From assembly GCF_036507355.1 (NCBI RefSeq), contig NZ_AP027877.1: 64,000 bases of DNA; one strand, 5' to 3'. Below the pieces are notes generated by a model that made no database searches, was not told where the DNA came from, and saw only the letters and a list, made by a program, of their open reading frames with translations. Below, one piece after another: positions 31,686-48,354 of the stretch. Both the position numbers and the translations under genes were made by a program. How positions within the stretch are numbered: position 1 is the stretch's first letter; the number at the start of each line of letters is the position of its first letter. This DNA comes from Escherichia coli. Lineage in GTDB: Bacteria; Pseudomonadota; Gammaproteobacteria; Enterobacterales; Enterobacteriaceae.

Positions 31686-33545
31686 ATGAGCAAAGGAACG
31701 ACCAGCCAGGATGCCCCGTTCGGGACATTATTGGGCTACGCCCCAGGTGGGGTAGCAATCTACTCTTCAGATTACAGTTCTCTCGATCCGCAGGAATACG
31801 AAGATGACGCCGTATTCCGTAGCTATATCGACGACGAATATATGGGCCACAAATGGCAATGCGTTGAATTTGCTCGCCGTTTTCTCTTTCTGAACTACGG
31901 TGTGGTCTTTACTGACGTGGGTATGGCGTGGGAGATTTTCTCGCTGCGCTTCCTGCGTGAAGTGGTTAATGACAACATCCTGCCATTGCAGGCATTTCCT
32001 AACGGCTCGCCGCGTGCGCCGGTCGCGGGTGCGCTTCTTATCTGGGATAAAGGCGGTGAATTTAAAGACACTGGCCATGTCGCCATCATTACCCAATTAC
32101 ATGGCAACAAAGTCCGTATTGCGGAACAGAACGTGATTCATTCCCCGTTGCCGCAAGGGCAACAGTGGACGCGCGAACTGGAGATGGTGGTCGAAAACGG
32201 CTGCTATACCCTTAAAGATACTTTTGATGATACCACCATTCTGGGCTGGATGATCCAGACGGAAGATACTGAATACAGCTTACCGCAGCCGGAAATTGCA
32301 GGCGAGCTGCTGAAAATCAGCGGAGCGCGCCTGGAAAACAAAGGCCAGTTTGACGGTAAATGGCTGGATGAAAAAGATCCGCTACAAAACGCCTATGTGC
32401 AGGCCAACGGTCAGGTGATCAATCAGGATCCGTATCATTATTACACCATTACCGAGAGCGCCGAGCAGGAGCTGATTAAAGCCACCAACGAGCTGCACCT
32501 GATGTATCTTCACGCAACCGACAAGGTGCTGAAAGATGACAACCTGCTGGCGCTGTTCGACATTCCGAAAATCCTCTGGCCACGTTTGCGTCTCTCCTGG
32601 CAGCGTCGCCGTCACCATATGATCACCGGTCGTATGGATTTCTGCATGGATGAGCGTGGTCTGAAGGTTTACGAGTACAACGCCGACTCCGCCTCATGTC
32701 ATACCGAAGCGGGCTTGATCCTCGAACGTTGGGCGGAGCAGGGCTATAAAGGCAACGGCTTCAATCCGGCGGAAGGGCTGATTAACGAACTGGCTGGTGC
32801 CTGGAAACACAGTCGTGCACGTCCGTTTGTCCATATCATGCAGGACAAAGATATCGAGGAAAACTATCACGCGCAGTTTATGGAGCAGGCGCTGCACCAG
32901 GCGGGCTTTGAAACGCGTATCTTGCGCGGGCTGGATGAACTGGGCTGGGATGCTGCCGGGCAACTGATTGATGGGGAAGGGCGACTGGTTAACTGCGTGT
33001 GGAAAACCTGGGCGTGGGAAACCGCGTTTGATCAGATTCGTGAAGTTAGCGACCGTGAGTTTGCTGCGGTGCCAATCCGTACCGGTCATCCGCAAAACGA
33101 AGTGCGTCTTATCGACGTATTGCTGCGCCCGGAAGTGCTGGTCTTTGAGCCGCTGTGGACGGTGATCCCCGGCAACAAAGCGATTCTGCCGATCCTCTGG
33201 TCGCTGTTCCCGCACCATCGTTACCTGCTGGATACCGATTTCACTGTTAATGATGAATTGGTGAAAACAGGTTACGCAGTGAAACCGATTGCCGGTCGCT
33301 GTGGTAGCAATATCGACCTGGTCAGCCATCATGAAGAGGTGCTGGACAAAACCAGCGGTAAATTTGCCGAGCAGAAAAACATCTATCAGCAACTGTGGTG
33401 TTTGCCGAAAGTGGACGGGAAATACATTCAGGTATGTACCTTCACCGTTGGCGGCAACTACGGTGGGACGTGTTTGCGCGGTGATGAATCACTGGTTATT
33501 AAAAAAGAGAGTGATATTGAACCGTTAATTGTGGTGAAAGAGTAA
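31686..33545 (+). CDS. gss: Bifunctional glutathionylspermidine synthetase/amidase
   Basis: ORF 31683-33545; ATG at 31686 gives MSKGTTSQDAPFGTLLGYAP... (619 aa); CHAP amidase N-domain with Cys, ATP-grasp C-domain. Confidence 0.95.
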   Translation: MSKGTTSQDAPFGTLLGYAPGGVAIYSSDYSSLDPQEYEDDAVFRSYIDDEYMGHKWQCVEFARRFLFLNYGVVFTDVGMAWEIFSLRFLREVVNDNILPLQAFPNGSPRAPVAGALLIWDKGGEFKDTGHVAIITQLHGNKVRIAEQNVIHSPLPQGQQWTRELEMVVENGCYTLKDTFDDTTILGWMIQTEDTEYSLPQPEIAGELLKISGARLENKGQFDGKWLDEKDPLQNAYVQANGQVINQDPYHYYTITESAEQELIKATNELHLMYLHATDKVLKDDNLLALFDIPKILWPRLRLSWQRRRHHMITGRMDFCMDERGLKVYEYNADSASCHTEAGLILERWAEQGYKGNGFNPAEGLINELAGAWKHSRARPFVHIMQDKDIEENYHAQFMEQALHQAGFETRILRGLDELGWDAAGQLIDGEGRLVNCVWKTWAWETAFDQIREVSDREFAAVPIRTGHPQNEVRLIDVLLRPEVLVFEPLWTVIPGNKAILPILWSLFPHHRYLLDTDFTVNDELVKTGYAVKPIAGRCGSNIDLVSHHEEVLDKTSGKFAEQKNIYQQLWCLPKVDGKYIQVCTFTVGGNYGGTCLRGDESLVIKKESDIEPLIVVKE

Positions 33546-33558
33546 TACATGTTGTAGC

Positions 33559-33598
33559 AATCCCGTACTGATTATGAAGAATAGTCAGTACGGGGATT
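33559..33598. terminator. Stem-loop downstream of gss
   Basis: Near-perfect inverted repeat AATCCCGTACTGA ... TCAGTACGGGGATT; no strong T-run, so terminator function is uncertain. Confidence 0.35.
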
Positions 33599-33836
33599 AA
33601 TCAAAATATTCAATATTTATATATTCAAATATTTATTCATTTCATATGTGAATACATTAACCAGCAGAATGCCTGTGTTCTAATTATTTCTAAAGATTTT
33701 TAATGAATGCTTATTGTCTGATACACAAGAAATAACACTCTTTTTATCGTTAAAAAATGATATTTCACTTTGCCCACACCGTTAAAGTCACTGATAATGC
33801 GTCCGTTCGTAAATTCAAAATGGCGTAATCTAATAT

Positions 33837-36077: not shown

Positions 36078-36155
36078 GAATATATCCTTTAATTTAAATA
36101 TCCATTAAAAATATTTATTTGGTTAATATGTTTTTATGAAAGCGTAATTCAGGTC

Positions 36156-36183
36156 AATGTCACAATTAACCATTGTCACAATA
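36156..36183. promoter_or_regulatory. Candidate operator in the yghT/yghS divergent promoter region
   Basis: AATGTCACAATT and the perfect 11-bp palindrome ATTGT-C-ACAAT lie 16 bp apart in an AT-rich 173-bp divergent intergenic region. Confidence 0.3.
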
Positions 36184-36250
36184 AGGTTGAACGGATATTC
36201 TGAGCACGGACCACGTAATATTCAATACATTATTTGCTGCCGGGTTTTTC

Positions 36251-42756: not shown

Positions 42757-43929
42757 TTACTGCTTCAGAGTAGCAAATGCCTGAATGATGGCATCGATTT
42801 GCTCACGACTGTGGGCAGCGTTTACGCTACAGCGCAGCAGCGTGATGCCTGCAGGCGCGGCAGGTGGCAGGATAAGATTCACATAAACGCCCAGCGAAAT
42901 AAGCTCGCGCCAGATGCGTAAACCTTCCTCTTTCGAACCGATTATTACCGGCACTACCGGACTAATATGTGAACTTAACTCATAACTCAGCTTTTGCAGC
43001 CCGTCATACAGATGGTTGGCATTATCCATCAGTTTTTGCCGCAACTCTGGTTGAGTGGCAATGGTTCTTAACGACGAGCGCACGGTTGCAATGCAGGAAG
43101 GAGAAGGGGAGGCGGTAAAAATATACGGACGACTGCCGTAGCGCAGCACTTCCATCGCTTCCGAACCCACGGCAAAACCACCAATAGAAGCCAGGCTTTT
43201 ACTGAAGGTGCCAACGATAATATCCACATCATCTTCAACGCCAACGGCTTCAACCAGCCCGCGCCCCGTTGCGCCTAACACGCCAAACGAGTGAGCTTCA
43301 TCGACAATTAAATATCCGCCGAGACGACGTTTGATATCAACAATTTCCGCCAGCGGCGCAACGTCACCGAGCATACTGTAGATGCCCTCAACGATGATAA
43401 TCGCCTCTTTCGCCCGTTCACCGAGGCGAACCATGCGCCGTTCCAGATCTTTAGCATCGTTATGGCGGAAACGAATAATTTCCGCGCCACCGAGAGAACA
43501 GGCGTCATAAATACTGGCGTGGCTGTCAGCATCCAGTAACACCACGGCGTTATGGTCGGCAAGTGCGCTGATGACGCCTAAATTAGCGGTATAACCGGTT
43601 GAAAAAACGATAGCGGTAGGGCGATTGAAAAACTCAGCAATCTCTTTCTCTAACGCCAGATGCGGCGCATAACTGCCGTTTGCCATACGAGAACCGGTGG
43701 TGCCGGTGCCTTGGGCCGCTAACGCTGCCTGACCTTCGGCGATGGCATCATGATTGAAGGTTAATCCGAGATAATTATTGGTCCCGGCCAGAATCACTTT
43801 TTTATTGCCGATCCGGCCTTCGGTGGCGGAATACACTTCATCAATACAGGTGCCAAACGGTGTTAACCCGTTGTCACTAAATTGCAGACGCTCGCCAGCA
43901 AGGCGCGCATATTTATCGTATAGCCCCAT
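42757..43929 (-). CDS. PLP-dependent alpha-oxoamine synthase, serine-palmitoyltransferase-like
   Basis: 390-aa ORF; DEAHSFGVLG and GTFSKSLASIGGF (PLP-lysine motif of the AONS/SPT/KBL family); ATG overlaps the stop of the upstream ACP gene. Confidence 0.85.
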   Translation of the reverse strand: MGLYDKYARLAGERLQFSDNGLTPFGTCIDEVYSATEGRIGNKKVILAGTNNYLGLTFNHDAIAEGQAALAAQGTGTTGSRMANGSYAPHLALEKEIAEFFNRPTAIVFSTGYTANLGVISALADHNAVVLLDADSHASIYDACSLGGAEIIRFRHNDAKDLERRMVRLGERAKEAIIIVEGIYSMLGDVAPLAEIVDIKRRLGGYLIVDEAHSFGVLGATGRGLVEAVGVEDDVDIIVGTFSKSLASIGGFAVGSEAMEVLRYGSRPYIFTASPSPSCIATVRSSLRTIATQPELRQKLMDNANHLYDGLQKLSYELSSHISPVVPVIIGSKEEGLRIWRELISLGVYVNLILPPAAPAGITLLRCSVNAAHSREQIDAIIQAFATLKQ

Positions 43930-44177
43930 TATTTATTCTCCAGCCATGGAAGTAGAGTTTCCATTAATTGCGCAGGGGTTTTGACATCCAGCAGAATATT
44001 AATAGGAATGGAAATATCGAATCTGTCTTCCAGCATCATTAAGAGATCCATCACTTTGATCGACTCCAGGCCAAGATCGTTGACGAGATCGCTGTCGGGC
44101 TTAATTTCCACACCGTTTTCGACCAAATCCTGTAAACAGGAAAGGATGTAATCCATTACTATTTCACGATTTACCAT
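43929..44177 (-). CDS. Acyl carrier protein (dedicated, non-AcpP)
   Basis: 82-aa acidic ORF with DLGLESIKVMDL phosphopantetheine-attachment-type serine motif. Confidence 0.8.
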   Translation of the reverse strand: MVNREIVMDYILSCLQDLVENGVEIKPDSDLVNDLGLESIKVMDLLMMLEDRFDISIPINILLDVKTPAQLMETLLPWLENK

Positions 44178-44208: not shown

Positions 44209-45123
44209 TCAAAATAGCCCGTTGCGTAATGCGTGTTCCAGGCTAATCCCGGGAAACCAATTAATATCTTCAGAAATACGGTTATTACTTGCCGACCAGT
44301 CGGCGTGGGTTAATTCACGAATTTTCGAGCGGGTCAGCATAGGTTCTTTACCTGCCAGGCGACTCAACGCGGTACTGATATCCGCAAGGCAGGTGAGTAC
44401 CGGCAGAGGAATGCCAACCATTCGCACGGAACCACAACGGGCGTCGGCGGCAAGTTGCTGTACGCGTTGCCAGTCATAGCCGCCAGCGACGCCATCGCAT
44501 AATTCATAGGTTTGCGTCTGTACAGTTTCGGCGCTTAACCACTGACCCACTGCTTGCGCAAAATCGGTGACATGCAGGAAAGAGAGCTGTGTATCTGGTG
44601 CACCAAGTCGTGGCAGCAGGCCGCGCAGCATCCAGTCAAACAGCGGTTTTAACTCTTTATCGCCGGGACCATACACGGCTGTCGGGCGAAAAACGCCCAG
44701 CGTAATTTCGTCAGCCATTGCCGTCAGCCGTTGTTCGGCGACGTGTTTGGAATTTGCGTACCAGGAGAGCTCGGGATGGCGCGCCGCCAGCGAAGAGATA
44801 AACAGAAAACGTTGGCAAAAGCCGCTCTCTTTTGCTGCTTGCATCAGGCGCAGGCTGCCGTCAACGTTACAGTGGGTAAAAATCTCTTCTTTGTGTCCGC
44901 GCACTTGCCCGGCGCAATGGACCACCGCGCTGGCTCCGGCAACCAGTTCGCTAAGCGAATGTGTATCTTCCAGCGAACCGCGCACCCAAGTAAGATTATC
45001 ATTGACGTGAGCGCGGGCAGTACGCGTCAATGCGCGAACGTGAAAGCCGCGGGCGAGCAGGTTATCGATAATATATTTACCGATAAAACCGGTAGCGCCC
45101 GTCACCGCGACAGTTTGATTCAT
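44209..45123 (-). CDS. NAD(P)-dependent epimerase/dehydratase-family (extended SDR) reductase
   Basis: 304-aa ORF; N-terminal VTGATGFIGKYI Rossmann motif; YANSK (YxxxK) catalytic motif; start overlaps the upstream stop (ATGA). Confidence 0.8.
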   Translation of the reverse strand: MNQTVAVTGATGFIGKYIIDNLLARGFHVRALTRTARAHVNDNLTWVRGSLEDTHSLSELVAGASAVVHCAGQVRGHKEEIFTHCNVDGSLRLMQAAKESGFCQRFLFISSLAARHPELSWYANSKHVAEQRLTAMADEITLGVFRPTAVYGPGDKELKPLFDWMLRGLLPRLGAPDTQLSFLHVTDFAQAVGQWLSAETVQTQTYELCDGVAGGYDWQRVQQLAADARCGSVRMVGIPLPVLTCLADISTALSRLAGKEPMLTRSKIRELTHADWSASNNRISEDINWFPGISLEHALRNGLF

Positions 45124-46841
45124 GCCAGGGATTCCTGCACATGAAGGCTTGCAGCATAAGCCTTCTGATAACGTTTTTTCGCTTCCGCACGGGCAGGCTT
45201 GCCGGAGGACGTTCGGGGAATGCTGTGGGGCGGCAACAGATCGATAGCCGCGGTCACGCCAAATTCGCTTTGGATCCGTGCTGCCAGCGCGTGGATAAGC
45301 TGCCCGCGACGTTCTTCATCGCTGATCCGACACTGGATCTGCAAAATGATTTTTTCCTGGACGGTAACAAAAGCAATCGCATCGCCAGAATGAATTTCCG
45401 GTTCCTGTTCCGCTATATATTCAATATCCTGCGGCCAGATATTACGGCCACGAATAATAATCAGATCTTTAATGCGTCCGGTGACATACAGATAACCATC
45501 CAGCAGATAACCGAGGTCGCCAGTGTCTAACCAGCCCGTCGCGGCAATCTCGTCTTGCGAAGCCTGGTCGCCAAAGTAACCGCTCATCAGACTGGGACCG
45601 GAGATGCAAATATGGCCTACCACACGTTCCGCGACCGGCATACCTGCTTGATTGCGGATTTCAATACCATGTTCCGGCAACGCTTTGCCGCAGTTGACGA
45701 AAGTCGATACGGCGCGTGTCTCTGCACCCGGCGCGACGGCTTTACCCTGATATTCGAGGATGTCGCGATCCACTTCGTTAACTACAACCCCGGAGGCTTC
45801 ATCAGAGAAGCTGACAGCCAGCGCATTTTCTGCCAGGCCGTAGCACGGCATGAAAGTTTTATCGTCAAAGTTAACCTGACGGAAACATTCAGCGAATTGA
45901 TGGAGTTGTTCTGCGGAGATGGGTTCTGCACCAATACCAGCGACGCGCCAGCAGGAAAGATCCAGTTCAGCGAGATCTTTTTCATTCACGCGGCGCTGGC
46001 ACAATTCATAGCCAAACGGCGGCGCAACGGAAACGGTGCCGCGATTTTTACTGATCAATTTAAGCCATTGCAGAGGACGCATGGCAAAATCCTGAGTGCG
46101 CAAATAATCTACTGAAAGTTGCGTGGCGACGGGGGTCAGGAGAAAGCCGACCAGTCCCATATCATGGTAGAAAGGCAGCCAGGAGACGCAGCGGTCGCCA
46201 GGGCGTAATTTAATGCCGTCGTGGCTTATAGCACGTAGATTAGCCATCACTTCGCGATGGGTGATAATGACGCCACGGGGAAAACGGGTGCTGCCGGAGG
46301 TGTACTGGAGGTAGGCGATATCGTTCGGAACTGGACGCTGGAGCGCAACATCGGCTTCCGGTAATGCCTTAAACCAGGCGTGGCTTAAAACATGTAATTC
46401 GGGGTTGTCATGCGTCGCGGCATTGACCAGTGGCAACCACTCATCACCAGTGATAATGGCTGCGGGCTGGCAACTTGTCAGTAAACCCTGCAATTTGGCG
46501 CTCCAGGAATCCCGCTGACCAACGCCCATTGGAATCGCCAACGGGACGGCGACTAAGCCGGCATACTGGCAGGCAAAAAAAGCCTCTACGAACCCGCTAC
46601 TTGTTTCGGCAATCAGTGCCACGCGATCGCCTTTTTTCAGGTTCAGCGATAACAACCGCTTCGCACCAGCTTCGGCACGCGCTTTTAACGTCTGATATTC
46701 CAGTTGATCTTCAAGTTGGCAACGTCTGTCATAAAAATTCATTCCAGCGCTACTCAGAGCGGCGTAGTCCAAAGCATCAACCAGCGTTGGAAAATCGGCA
46801 TAGCGTATAGGTAGGGAATGCGTAAAGATTTTATTAGACAT
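45120..46841 (-). CDS. Fatty acyl-AMP ligase / acyl-ACP synthetase (adenylate-forming enzyme)
   Basis: ORF 45120-46850 (GTG) trimmed to ATG 46839-46841 (MSNKIFTHSL...); AMP-binding core motifs YTSGSTRFPRGV and TGDLGY...GRIKDLIIIRGRNI. Confidence 0.85.
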   Translation of the reverse strand: MSNKIFTHSLPIRYADFPTLVDALDYAALSSAGMNFYDRRCQLEDQLEYQTLKARAEAGAKRLLSLNLKKGDRVALIAETSSGFVEAFFACQYAGLVAVPLAIPMGVGQRDSWSAKLQGLLTSCQPAAIITGDEWLPLVNAATHDNPELHVLSHAWFKALPEADVALQRPVPNDIAYLQYTSGSTRFPRGVIITHREVMANLRAISHDGIKLRPGDRCVSWLPFYHDMGLVGFLLTPVATQLSVDYLRTQDFAMRPLQWLKLISKNRGTVSVAPPFGYELCQRRVNEKDLAELDLSCWRVAGIGAEPISAEQLHQFAECFRQVNFDDKTFMPCYGLAENALAVSFSDEASGVVVNEVDRDILEYQGKAVAPGAETRAVSTFVNCGKALPEHGIEIRNQAGMPVAERVVGHICISGPSLMSGYFGDQASQDEIAATGWLDTGDLGYLLDGYLYVTGRIKDLIIIRGRNIWPQDIEYIAEQEPEIHSGDAIAFVTVQEKIILQIQCRISDEERRGQLIHALAARIQSEFGVTAAIDLLPPHSIPRTSSGKPARAEAKKRYQKAYAASLHVQESLA

Positions 46842-46850
46842 ATACACCAC

Positions 46851-47211
46851 GAAAAAATTGGATATCCAAAATAAAATGACAATAATGCGGTGGATTATAT
46901 AGGCATAAAAGATAAATGAGATAGTATTTTCATCGGTGTGAAAATGAACATTGATTTAAATAATGAGTTTAAGTTTTTTGTTTTTATTGTGAATGATATT
47001 TAATTTATGAATATATTAAGAAGAAGCCTTGTCCGGTCGCCTTAAATCGACAAAAGGCATTGTGGCGCTTCTGCGTAGTCGCTGACCCTATCGTAATCAT
47101 TAATAAATACTATTTATTCGTCGTTTGTATTCATTGGGTTGATTATTAAGATGCCGTTCGTTGCTGTTGCAACCTGTTTTTCACCGTTAATTATTTGTTA
47201 TCCACAGAACT
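46851..47211. promoter_or_regulatory. AT-rich divergent promoter region between the FAAL operon and yghO
   Basis: 361-bp noncoding stretch, visibly AT-rich with A/T tracts (e.g. TTTAAATAATGAGTTTAAGTTTTTTGTTTTTATTGTGAATGATATTTAATTTATGAATATATTAAG), flanked by divergent starts. Confidence 0.4.
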
Positions 47212-48354
47212 ATGGAATGCGATCTGCTGATGATCAAAATTGAAAAAGTAATTAATAAAAATGACCTTAAGGCATTTATTGCTTTTCCGTCATCACTTTA
47301 TCCCGATGATCCAAACTGGATACCCCCTTTATTCATTGAACGCAGCGAGCATTTGTCTGCGAAGAATCCGGGGACGGACCATATCATCTGGCAGGCGTGG
47401 GTGGCAAAAAAAGCGGGGCAGATAGTTGGGCGTATTACCGCGCAAATAGATACCTTACACCGCGAGTGTTACGGCGAAGATACCGGTCATTTCGGCATGA
47501 TTGACGCCATTGATGATCCGCAGGTTTTTGCCGCGTTGTTTGGCGCAGCGGAAGCGTGGTTGAAGTCACAAGGTGCAAGTAAGATCAGCGGGCCTTTCAG
47601 CCTGAATATCAATCAGGAAAGCGGATTACTGATTGAAGGTTTTGACACACCACCCTGTGCGATGATGCCACACGGCAAACCGTGGTATGCCGCGCATATT
47701 GAACAACTGGGTTATCACAAAGGCATTGATTTACTGGCGTGGTGGATGCAGCGAACCGATCTCACTTTCTCTCCGGCGCTAAAAAAACTGATGGTTCAGG
47801 TGCGCAAAAAGGTGACCATTCGCTGCATCAATCGCCAGCGGTTTGCCGAAGAGATGCAGATCCTGCGTGAGATTTTCAACTCTGGCTGGCAGCACAACTG
47901 GGGATTTGTGCCGTTTACCGAACATGAATTCGCGACCATGGGCGACCAACTTAAATATCTGGTGCCGGACGATATGATCTACATCGCTGAGATTGATTCT
48001 GCACCTTGCGCGTTTATTGTCGGCTTGCCAAACATCAACGAGGCGATTGCCGATCTGAACGGATCGCTCTTTCCCTTCGGCTGGGCAAAATTGCTGTGGC
48101 GTTTGAAAGTCAGCGGTGTGCGAACTGCGCGAGTACCGCTGATGGGCGTGCGCGACGAGTATCAGTTCAGCCGCATCGGCCCGGTGATTGCGCTGTTATT
48201 GATTGAAGCCTTACGCGATCCGTTTGCCCGCCGGAAGATCGATGCGCTGGAGATGTCATGGATCCTCGAAACCAATACAGGCATGAATAACATGCTGGAA
48301 CGCATTGGGGCGGAGCCGTACAAGCGTTACCGATTGTATGAAAAGCAGATTTAA
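47212..48354 (+). CDS. yghO: YghO-family protein, putative GNAT-like N-acyltransferase, intact
   Basis: 380-aa ORF MECDLLMIKIEKVINKNDLKAFIAFPSSLYPDDPNWIPPLF...; recognised as YghO family, which I recall as a disrupted pseudogene in K-12; acyltransferase assignment is from family knowledge, not from motifs I can verify. Confidence 0.7.
   Translation: MECDLLMIKIEKVINKNDLKAFIAFPSSLYPDDPNWIPPLFIERSEHLSAKNPGTDHIIWQAWVAKKAGQIVGRITAQIDTLHRECYGEDTGHFGMIDAIDDPQVFAALFGAAEAWLKSQGASKISGPFSLNINQESGLLIEGFDTPPCAMMPHGKPWYAAHIEQLGYHKGIDLLAWWMQRTDLTFSPALKKLMVQVRKKVTIRCINRQRFAEEMQILREIFNSGWQHNWGFVPFTEHEFATMGDQLKYLVPDDMIYIAEIDSAPCAFIVGLPNINEAIADLNGSLFPFGWAKLLWRLKVSGVRTARVPLMGVRDEYQFSRIGPVIALLLIEALRDPFARRKIDALEMSWILETNTGMNNMLERIGAEPYKRYRLYEKQI

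Follow-up and report, generated by a model that had tools for sequence, protein, structure and literature searches.

The ceramide gene cluster and its divergent spacer

The window, which is the whole 64-kb stretch of E. coli chromosomal DNA that was analysed, contained a complete ceramide synthesis cluster, with all five gene types present in the published order (Table 1). The product of aasR (573-576 aa), which the original prediction had called FAAL, matched the Pfam AMP-binding family and the NCBIfam fatty acyl-AMP ligase model (873 bits), and spt matched the NCBIfam model SerpalmtaseBetaP at 595.6 bits (cutoff 500). YghO matched neither Pfam nor NCBIfam models, and a PDB profile search with this protein returned no relatives. 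By literature listing, yghO is a homologue of the Caulobacter N-acyltransferase bCerS (CC_1154), as ECD_02850 is placed together with CC_1154 under "aca" in the legend of Figure 9 of Padilla-Gomez 2022 (PMC9386255). The CerS orthologues of Azotobacter and Pseudomonas were located close to aasR, as were the yghO homologues. The upstream neighbours of the cluster included paralogous lptF/lptG genes, a YtfJ-family gene, the flippase-like yghQ, and yghR/S/T.

The BL21 locus shared the gene order and architecture of the window, and 380 of the 388 positions of its spacer were identical. The BL21(DE3) copies, ECD_02851-02854, were characterised by Padilla-Gomez 2022 (PMC9386255), whose available text reports that AasR-Ec acylates AcpR-Ec, that SPT-Ec yields 3-oxo-sphinganine, and that all three proteins are active upon over-expression. 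The "lipid operon" of the original prediction is an already published system; the promoter region, its composition and its regulation were not addressed in the available portions of Olea-Ozuna 2021, Stankeviciute 2022, and Padilla-Gomez 2022.

Table 1. Positions of genes and spacer features in the window.
Feature	Position	Strand	Remarks
yghT/yghS divergent spacer (comparator, same lipid cluster)	36078..36250		GC 0.30
spt, serine palmitoyltransferase	42757..43929	-	=ECD_02854; NCBIfam equivalog
acpR, specialised acyl carrier protein	43929..44177	-	=ECD_02853; Pfam/NCBIfam
cerR/epi, NAD-dependent epimerase/dehydratase-family reductase	44209..45123	-	=ECD_02852; Pfam/NCBIfam
aasR, specialised acyl-ACP synthetase, first operon gene	45120..46841	-	=ECD_02851 in BL21
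aasR/yghO divergent intergenic control region	46842..47229		388 bp, GC 0.327; starts fixed by cross-genus conservation
Constrained core, likely aasR promoter and 5' leader	46842..46930	-	Divergence SSGw2 1.1%, SCPM 3.4%
Candidate aasR -10 hexamer TATAAT	46894..46899	-	Perfect consensus; read from sequence
Putative degenerate TGTTTA-N5-TGTTTA remnant	46901..46925	-	Half-sites ~7/12 by eye
Fast-evolving middle	46931..47100		Divergence 15-16% and 35-39%; GC 0.29-0.35
yghO-proximal part	47101..47229	+	Divergence SSGw2 7.0%, SCPM 23.5%
yghO	47230..48354	+	=ECD_02850; PGAP calls ATG 47212 instead

The original prediction described 46851-47211 as a strongly AT-rich divergent control region. Its divergent character was borne out by the conservation of leftward aasR and rightward yghO as a divergently oriented pair at all 67 loci examined, and its AT-richness was confirmed by windowed GC content. 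The GC content of this 361-bp stretch was 0.316, compared with 0.513 for the whole window. Just 0.32% of the 361-bp windows were equally poor in GC; in BL21 (50 kb) and K-12 (16 kb) DNA the corresponding fraction was 0.5-0.8%. The ends of the region, on the other hand, had to be corrected. Cross-genus conservation supported the start codons ATG 46841 for aasR and ATG 47230 for yghO, the latter being chosen because the homologues are 374 aa in length, and the true spacer therefore extends from 46842 to 47229. The coding DNA on either side had a GC content of 0.50-0.58. Among the approximately 22 spacers of at least 100 bp in the window (median GC ~0.44), this spacer ranked third lowest, after gss/pitB (0.29) and yghT/yghS (0.30), and it is thus low in GC even for intergenic DNA, although not unique. 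The contiguous tract with a GC content below 0.42 measured 328 bp and the overall AT-rich tract ~580 bp; a GC-richer island at ~47020-47095 interrupts the AT-rich DNA.

The original prediction also called the region consistent with xenogeneic silencing, and the distribution of the cluster did not support the label "xenogeneic". Of 5426 complete E. coli genomes, 4547 contained a 701-bp query around the spacer (99.7% identity to E. coli O145 RM9872), and 4132 (~76% of the 5426) had it with at least 80% coverage at the same chromosomal site. A syntenic cluster was identified in Citrobacter amalonaticus. The distribution was not sporadic in the manner of an island, and the absences traced to deletions: an IS5-associated deletion in K-12 removed yghQ' through the first ~22 nt of yghO, and in O157 Sakai a deletion beside SpLE3 took away everything between pheV/SpLE3 and a truncated pitB, including the ceramide locus. 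In RM9872, yghO is a pseudogene. YghO homologues showed ~80% identity across Enterobacterales and 48-70% identity in Pseudomonas, Azotobacter, nitrifiers, Gemmatimonadota, and delta-proteobacterial MAGs. An aasR homologue was directly divergent from yghO in the 67 loci examined, with spacers of 232-2360 bp (median 594 bp; those of Enterobacterales reached 1.1 kb), and the spacer was GC-poorer than its flanks in 67/67 loci, with a median gap of 11 points. A long AT-rich spacer is therefore ancestral to the gene pair, judged across these loci, and is neither a peculiarity of E. coli nor a sign of recent acquisition. The flanking genes lacked a foreign composition (GC 0.50-0.58), and at four-fold sites the operon and yghO had a GC content of 0.63-0.67. 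The recurrence in 67 loci, the host-like GC content of the genes and the fixed chromosomal site together argue against the term "xenogeneic".

Constraint, predicted promoters and motifs within the spacer

Six E. coli variants of the spacer were compared, including two divergent lineages (SSGw2 and SCPM) whose divergence from the window at four-fold sites was 9.3% and 34.3% in aasR, and 3.9% and 21.3% in yghO, which served as the reference. The segment adjoining aasR was strongly conserved, with weaker conservation beyond it up to ~46967. No open frame could extend aasR through 46842-46930. The middle of the spacer (46931-47100) diverged at a rate equal to or above that of four-fold sites, reaching 15.8% (SSGw2) and 39.4% (SCPM) in 46968-47100, and no conserved elements were found within it. 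The yghO-proximal part evolved at a roughly neutral rate with short conserved islands, and included a weak promoter-like pair (TTGCAA-16-AATTAT). Upstream of yghO, E. coli lacks the AAGG ribosome-binding site that is conserved in other genera. On this comparison, clear selection within E. coli is seen only on the 90-125 bp adjoining aasR. The GC content stayed at 0.26-0.37 in each segment and lineage compared. This retention of AT-richness despite the turnover of the spacer sequence was counted in favour of H-NS.

The core contained a perfect TATAAT that was unchanged in the six E. coli variants, and no -35-like hexamer was found 16-18 bp upstream of it. A consensus scan for sigma-70 promoters and terminators recovered three promoter-like sites in the spacer, compared with 3.2 in shuffled sequences; the TATAAT was not among them because the scan requires a -35 element. 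We infer that this hexamer is the -10 element of the aasR promoter, with a predicted start near 46887 and a leader of ~45 nt, and the absence of a -35 element predicts that this promoter is activator-dependent.

The phased A/T tracts of the original prediction were not recovered. The spacer contained 20 A/T tracts of at least 4 nt, a number that matched the expectation from dinucleotide composition, and the power spectrum of the tract positions had no peak at 10-11.5 bp when compared with dinucleotide shuffles (0.56 observed vs. a shuffle mean of 1.11; p = 0.89), nor was there a peak in any sub-segment of the spacer. Curvature from phased A-tracts, as described for H-NS regions, was thus not found. 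The motif TCGATAAATT (tCGATAAATT), which we take to be the consensus of the high-affinity H-NS nucleation motif, had a single match in the spacer, with two mismatches (47002-47011), which falls short of a high-affinity nucleation site, and across the window it was not enriched (83 matches vs. 66 expected). TpA steps in the spacer were not in excess (0.096 vs. 0.113 expected from base composition).

Consensuses of 16 transcription factors (PhoP, PmrA, Fur, CRP, FNR, ArcA, PhoB, CpxR, IHF, FadR, FabR, RcsB, SlyA, Lrp/LeuO-like, OmpR, and Fis) were scanned in the E. coli spacer. None exceeded chance save a marginal ArcA-like repeat, CGTTAATTATTTGTTA, at 47185-47200 just upstream of yghO (13/16), which may be regarded only as a lead (P about 0.05, uncorrected over the 16 motifs). 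The best SlyA-like site in the spacer (8/12) was at chance level. A 7-bp inverted repeat, ATTTTCA-N6-TGAAAAT (46927-46946), was spotted by eye and rejected as a conserved operator, since neither SSGw2 nor SCPM keeps it intact. At a permissive threshold, Rfam yielded only a meaningless miRNA match over the spacer (E = 0.64). No small ORF in the spacer was credible or conserved; the sole ATG ORF in its middle, of 31 aa on the minus strand (47005-47100), lay within the unconserved stretch.

In other Enterobacterales, a direct repeat, TGTTTA-N5-TGTTTA, was identified on the aasR strand at the homologous position of the spacer. It was perfect (12/12) in nine loci, from Serratia (four loci, three species), Kosakonia, Erwinia billingiae, Rahnella, Tatumella, and Klebsiella indica, and matched at 11/12 in three others, from Citrobacter amalonaticus, Pantoea cypripedii, and Mangrovibacter. 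Its chance expectation was 0.01-0.05 per spacer. At five of those loci it was the only match of at least 11/12 within 13-19 kb, and the 64-kb E. coli window contained a single such match, which was unrelated. This repeat has the form of the PhoP-box consensus, (T/G)GTTTA-N5-(T/G)GTTTA, a likeness that serves as a lead only. An apparent ORF of 19-23 aa covers the repeat in Serratia, Rahnella, and Pantoea; it has no start codon in Erwinia and K. indica, its frame is not the same from one species to the next, and the sequence differences show no periodicity of three, so it was rejected as a coding sequence. The hexamers of the repeat are invariant and the 5-nt gap varies, and together with the unconserved ORF this makes a putative binding site the better reading.

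Two conserved blocks, AAAAGTGAAT and GCATTAAGTGGTAAAA, follow the repeat in the other genera, and the cross-genus spacer alignment showed little conservation past the first ~100 columns. The homologous stretch in E. coli (46901-46967) was recognisable by its AGTAT, AAAATGAAC, and ATTTAA, and no PhoP box was found in the E. coli spacer, where the best match to the PhoP pattern (9/12) was at chance level. The ~250-330 bp that separate the module from aasR in the other genera are absent from E. coli. As judged from these alignments, the repeat, AAAAGTGAAT and GCATTAAGTGGTAAAA might form an ancestral response-regulator module that governs the ceramide genes of Enterobacterales and ties them to PhoPQ-type envelope signalling; E. 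coli, without the repeat, would then carry a cryptic, H-NS-damped cluster that is shed lineage by lineage. We advance this scenario tentatively and consider it unlikely as a whole.

H-NS, expression in culture and competing explanations

The spacer exceeded the genome average in AT content (GC 0.316-0.327 vs. 0.513 for the window), as H-NS regions do. A precedent is available in the same lipid cluster: the yghT/yghS spacer, located 10.6 kb from the aasR/yghO spacer and comparable to it in size and GC content, lies in an AT-rich tract of ~340 bp and is identical to K-12 at 172 of 173 positions. Two K-12 ChIP studies list yghS as bound by H-NS, and the gene was up 3.1-fold on over-expression of the anti-silencer SlyA (PMC5797941, Table 2). 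From composition and this precedent, H-NS probably occupies the aasR/yghO spacer, and a substantial effect of H-NS on aasR/yghO expression is conceivable but falls somewhat short of an even prospect. Of the H-NS regions in K-12, the ones above 1 kb show an enrichment of acquired genes and are tied to silencing, whereas those shorter than 1 kb are found upstream of operons and were described as "gentler modulators," with 40% of the target genes of short regions being differentially expressed in an hns mutant (PMC3064808). The AT-rich tract of the spacer (328 to ~580 bp) did not reach the ~1 kb of the long (LH-NS) class; being shorter than 0.6 kb, it would belong to the short "modulator" class if H-NS is bound. 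No H-NS ChIP or hns-mutant results for strains carrying the locus were found in the literature searched, and the supplements of the hns transcriptome of EAEC 042 contained no recognisable entry for these genes.

The original prediction that the operon may be silent under laboratory conditions received indirect support from published work on BL21(DE3), whose spacer is 98% identical to that of the window. According to the available text of PMC9386255, neither empty vectors nor SPT-Ec on its own altered the lipid profile of this strain, and 3-oxo-sphinganine was formed on co-expression of AcpR, AasR and an SPT from plasmids; the cells were grown in complex medium at 30 °C to the transition from exponential to stationary phase. 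As no product was formed without plasmid-borne AcpR and AasR, chromosomal aasR and acpR appear not to have been effectively expressed there, which suggests that the chromosomal ceramide operon of BL21 is effectively off in rich medium. The same text attributes sphinganine- and ceramide-like bands "possibly" to chromosomal ECD_02852 and ECD_02850 (PMC9386255); if this is true, both the operon and yghO would be expressed at some basal level. A BL21 transcriptome paper did not mention the ceramide locus, and nothing on the timing of expression of the E. coli ceramide set was reported in the literature searched.

The explanation that we prefer, and to which we would give an even chance, is a composite of an activator-dependent aasR promoter, a short H-NS modulator patch and a lost activator site. 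The spacer would serve as a shared two-way promoter region, for aasR-cerR-acpR-spt leftward and for yghO rightward. The core adjoining aasR would provide a consensus -10 element without a -35 element, followed by the short leader, and would need an activator, while the remaining ~270 bp would drift nearly neutrally with the GC content held at 29-37%. H-NS/StpA would be drawn to the AT-rich DNA and form a short patch close to the promoters, damping both of them; this would place the spacer in the modulator class, as distinct from xenogeneic silencing of foreign DNA. The ancestral PhoP-box-like response-regulator site would have eroded in E. coli, and we propose that the operon is for this reason essentially off in standard culture. 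AT-biased mutation alone could also make a near-neutral spacer AT-rich, a point that we counted against the composite. Of the parts of this account, the composition, the identities of the genes, the pattern of conservation and the spread across taxa are observed, and the promoter assignment, the H-NS occupancy and the want of an activator are inferred.

A possible, though doubtful, alternative is that this is an ordinary promoter spacer in which H-NS has no meaningful role, made up of promoter or UP-type sequence plus AT-biased drift, and that the operon is quiet only for want of its activator, in a cluster that is decaying. Approximately 70% of the spacer evolving at or above the four-fold-site rate is what this alternative predicts, and it agrees with the lack of phasing, of H-NS motif enrichment and of TpA excess. 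Decay would fit the loss of the PhoP-like repeat and of the AAGG site of yghO in E. coli, the deletion of the locus in K-12 (IS5) and O157 Sakai, and the yghO pseudogene in RM9872. However, a GC content of 0.29-0.37 is low against the median of ~0.44 for spacers of the window, and it has been held across lineages that are 39% divergent and across 67 loci from many phyla, which is more like a retained composition. The equally AT-rich sister spacer yghT/yghS is, moreover, H-NS-bound in K-12.

Alternatively, a horizontally acquired operon could be under xenogeneic silencing by H-NS/StpA nucleated at curved, phased A-tracts, and would require a dedicated anti-silencer. We consider this improbable. 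The AT-rich spacer, the indirect evidence for laboratory silence of BL21 in the available text of PMC9386255 and the response of yghS, a gene of the same cluster, to the anti-silencer SlyA in K-12 (PMC5797941) are all in its favour, but the coding DNA is host-like in GC (0.50-0.58; 0.63-0.67 at four-fold sites), and the locus, which has a syntenic counterpart in Citrobacter, keeps one chromosomal position in 76% of the complete E. coli genomes. Furthermore, the tract is shorter than 1 kb, compared with more than 1 kb for regions of the silencing type (PMC3064808), its A-tracts are not phased, and its SlyA-like match (8/12) is at chance level. The length of the spacer could also be explained, without silencing, by something unannotated within it: an sRNA, a small protein, or a riboswitch or structured leader serving yghO. 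The spacer is of unusual length in all groups (median 594 bp, Enterobacterales to 1.1 kb), and the distance of ~385 nt from the conserved module to yghO is fixed in several genera. Nevertheless, this explanation is very improbable, given that Rfam returned no match, that no small ORF was credible and conserved, that the cross-genus alignment was poorly conserved past its first ~100 columns, and that the middle segment is the least conserved part in E. coli.

Divergent spacers rich in AT are common in themselves, and the link of this one to H-NS is a hypothesis. The complete ceramide gene set is present in most E. coli strains, including BL21(DE3), and was lost from K-12. A control region of this build, short, AT-rich and with a single small core under constraint, provides a concrete handle on the control of the pathway. 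Whether E. coli ever makes sphingolipids bears on outer-membrane biology, polymyxin responses, and host interaction.

Comparison with known regulatory systems and ceramide clusters

In PhoP-activated promoters, the box reportedly replaces the -35 element. The locus of C. amalonaticus resembles this arrangement, with a putative promoter lacking a -35 element beside the 11/12 repeat, 75 nt from the aasR ATG. In the genera with long spacers, in contrast, 240-440 nt separate the repeat from aasR and ~385 nt separate it from yghO, and a good -10 element is missing at the canonical ~12 bp beyond the repeat. The E. coli locus differs in that its repeat is degenerate.

Xenogeneic silencing is said to act on long AT-rich islands that were horizontally acquired. 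The aasR/yghO spacer is similar to such islands in its low GC content relative to the genome and in its apparent laboratory silence. It differs in that only the spacer, and not the genes, is AT-rich, in that the locus is widespread and syntenic, and in that the tract falls well below 1 kb. The short (SH-NS) regions of Kahramanoglou et al. 2011 are likewise AT-rich and located upstream of operons, and the spacer, at less than 0.6 kb with flanks of normal GC content, resembles them. The sister spacer yghT/yghS is a listed H-NS target in K-12; the aasR/yghO spacer has been deleted from K-12 and is a candidate member of the class.

The operon itself has a counterpart in Caulobacter crescentus, in which CC_1165-CC_1162 correspond to aasR-cerR-acpR-spt in the order shared with E. 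coli (PMC11324152). The Caulobacter cluster also contains LptF2/G2 and flippase genes, which are paralleled in E. coli by lptF/lptG and yghQ (PMC11324152). The two clusters differ in the position of cerS: in E. coli this gene, yghO, is the immediate divergent neighbour of aasR, whereas CC_1154 is located approximately 10 genes away in Caulobacter.

Conserved elements of the aasR/yghO spacer

The divergent spacer between aasR and yghO contained a direct repeat, TGTTTA-N5-TGTTTA, that was conserved in Serratia, Kosakonia, Erwinia, Rahnella, Citrobacter amalonaticus, Pantoea, and others, and that we take to be PhoP-box-like. Its distance to yghO was fixed at approximately 385 nt in several genera, and its E. 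coli counterpart was degenerate. Further conserved blocks (AAAAGTGAAT, CATTTAA, and GCATTAAGTGGTAAAAAATAGC) adjoined the repeat in columns 1-100 of the cross-genus spacer alignment, in which GCATTAAGTGGTAAAA was the most highly conserved non-coding element across genera. A separate direct repeat, CGTTAATTATTTGTTA, was common to the E. coli variants and was located just upstream of yghO; it is presumably ArcA-box-like, with a statistically marginal match (13/16) to the consensus.

Coordinates of the features in the window and in the compared loci (L-numbers)
Feature	Locus	Coordinates	Remark
TGTTTA-N5-TGTTTA repeat	L002	8595-8611	
	L003	8693-8709	
	L005	5379-5395	
	L006	5601-5617	
	L007	5605-5621	
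	L008	5601-5617	
	Window	46901-46925	Degenerate counterpart
Conserved blocks beside repeat	L006	5595-5700	Example
	Window	about 46926-46967	
CGTTAATTATTTGTTA repeat	Window	47185-47200	
yghO ribosome-binding region	Window	47195-47232	Missing
yghT/yghS spacer	Window	36078-36250	GC 0.30
gss/pitB spacer	Window	33546-33836	GC 0.29
AT-rich run downstream of glcA	Window	57.7-62.3 kb	GC 0.35-0.37
	L001	about 31-36 kb	
Genes immediately upstream of spt	Window	37.8-42.7 kb	
	L001	11101-16023	
DAGK_prokar gene	L002	10354-10716	
	L005	7308-7667	
	L006	7323-7682	
	L007	7242-7604	
	L008	7323-7682	
Cluster loss, K-12 MG1655	L096	3,130,146-3,131,340	IS5 and deletion, yghQ' to start of yghO
Cluster loss, O157:H7 Sakai	L089	3,852,167-3,876,852	All between pheV/SpLE3 and truncated pitB gone, including the glc operon

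Start of yghO and losses of the ceramide cluster

The ribosome-binding region of yghO, TAAGG(C/T)T(G/A)TTT-ATG, was kept in all other Enterobacterales examined and was missing in E. coli, and the start annotated by PGAP (47212, 18 nt upstream) was not preceded by an obvious Shine-Dalgarno sequence either. The annotation of the related E. coli O145 strain RM9872 gives yghO as a pseudogene interrupted by an internal stop. Taken together, these sequence features suggest that yghO may be decaying in E. coli. Independent losses of the ceramide cluster were found in two strains, K-12 and O157:H7 Sakai.

Other AT-rich stretches

The yghT/yghS divergent spacer was as AT-rich as the aasR/yghO spacer, and it headed an operon on the plus strand (yghS-yghR-yghQ-hypothetical-ytfJ-like-lptF-lptG paralogues), which runs convergently toward spt. 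Published K-12 data list this spacer as associated with H-NS and show a response of yghS to SlyA (PMC5797941). Nowhere in the window was the AT content higher than in the gss/pitB spacer, and the minimum GC content over 361-bp windows (0.288) was found at 33491. Downstream of glcA, AT-rich windows occurred in a run, the RM9872 counterpart of which carried a cluster of Flp/Tad-type pilus genes and, after it, IS3 copies. The better candidate for a long AT-rich island is this run rather than the aasR/yghO spacer.

Lipid genes around the cluster

A DAGK_prokar (DgkA-like) gene was located downstream of yghO in Serratia, Kosakonia, Erwinia, Pantoea, and Rahnella, but was absent downstream of E. coli yghO; it may encode a lipid kinase with the ceramide product as its substrate. 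Immediately upstream of spt were a second lptF/lptG copy, a YtfJ-family gene, a hypothetical gene, and the flippase-like yghQ. This gene set mirrors the LptF2/LptG2/flippase genes of Caulobacter, for which a role in sphingolipid export has been proposed (PMC11324152).
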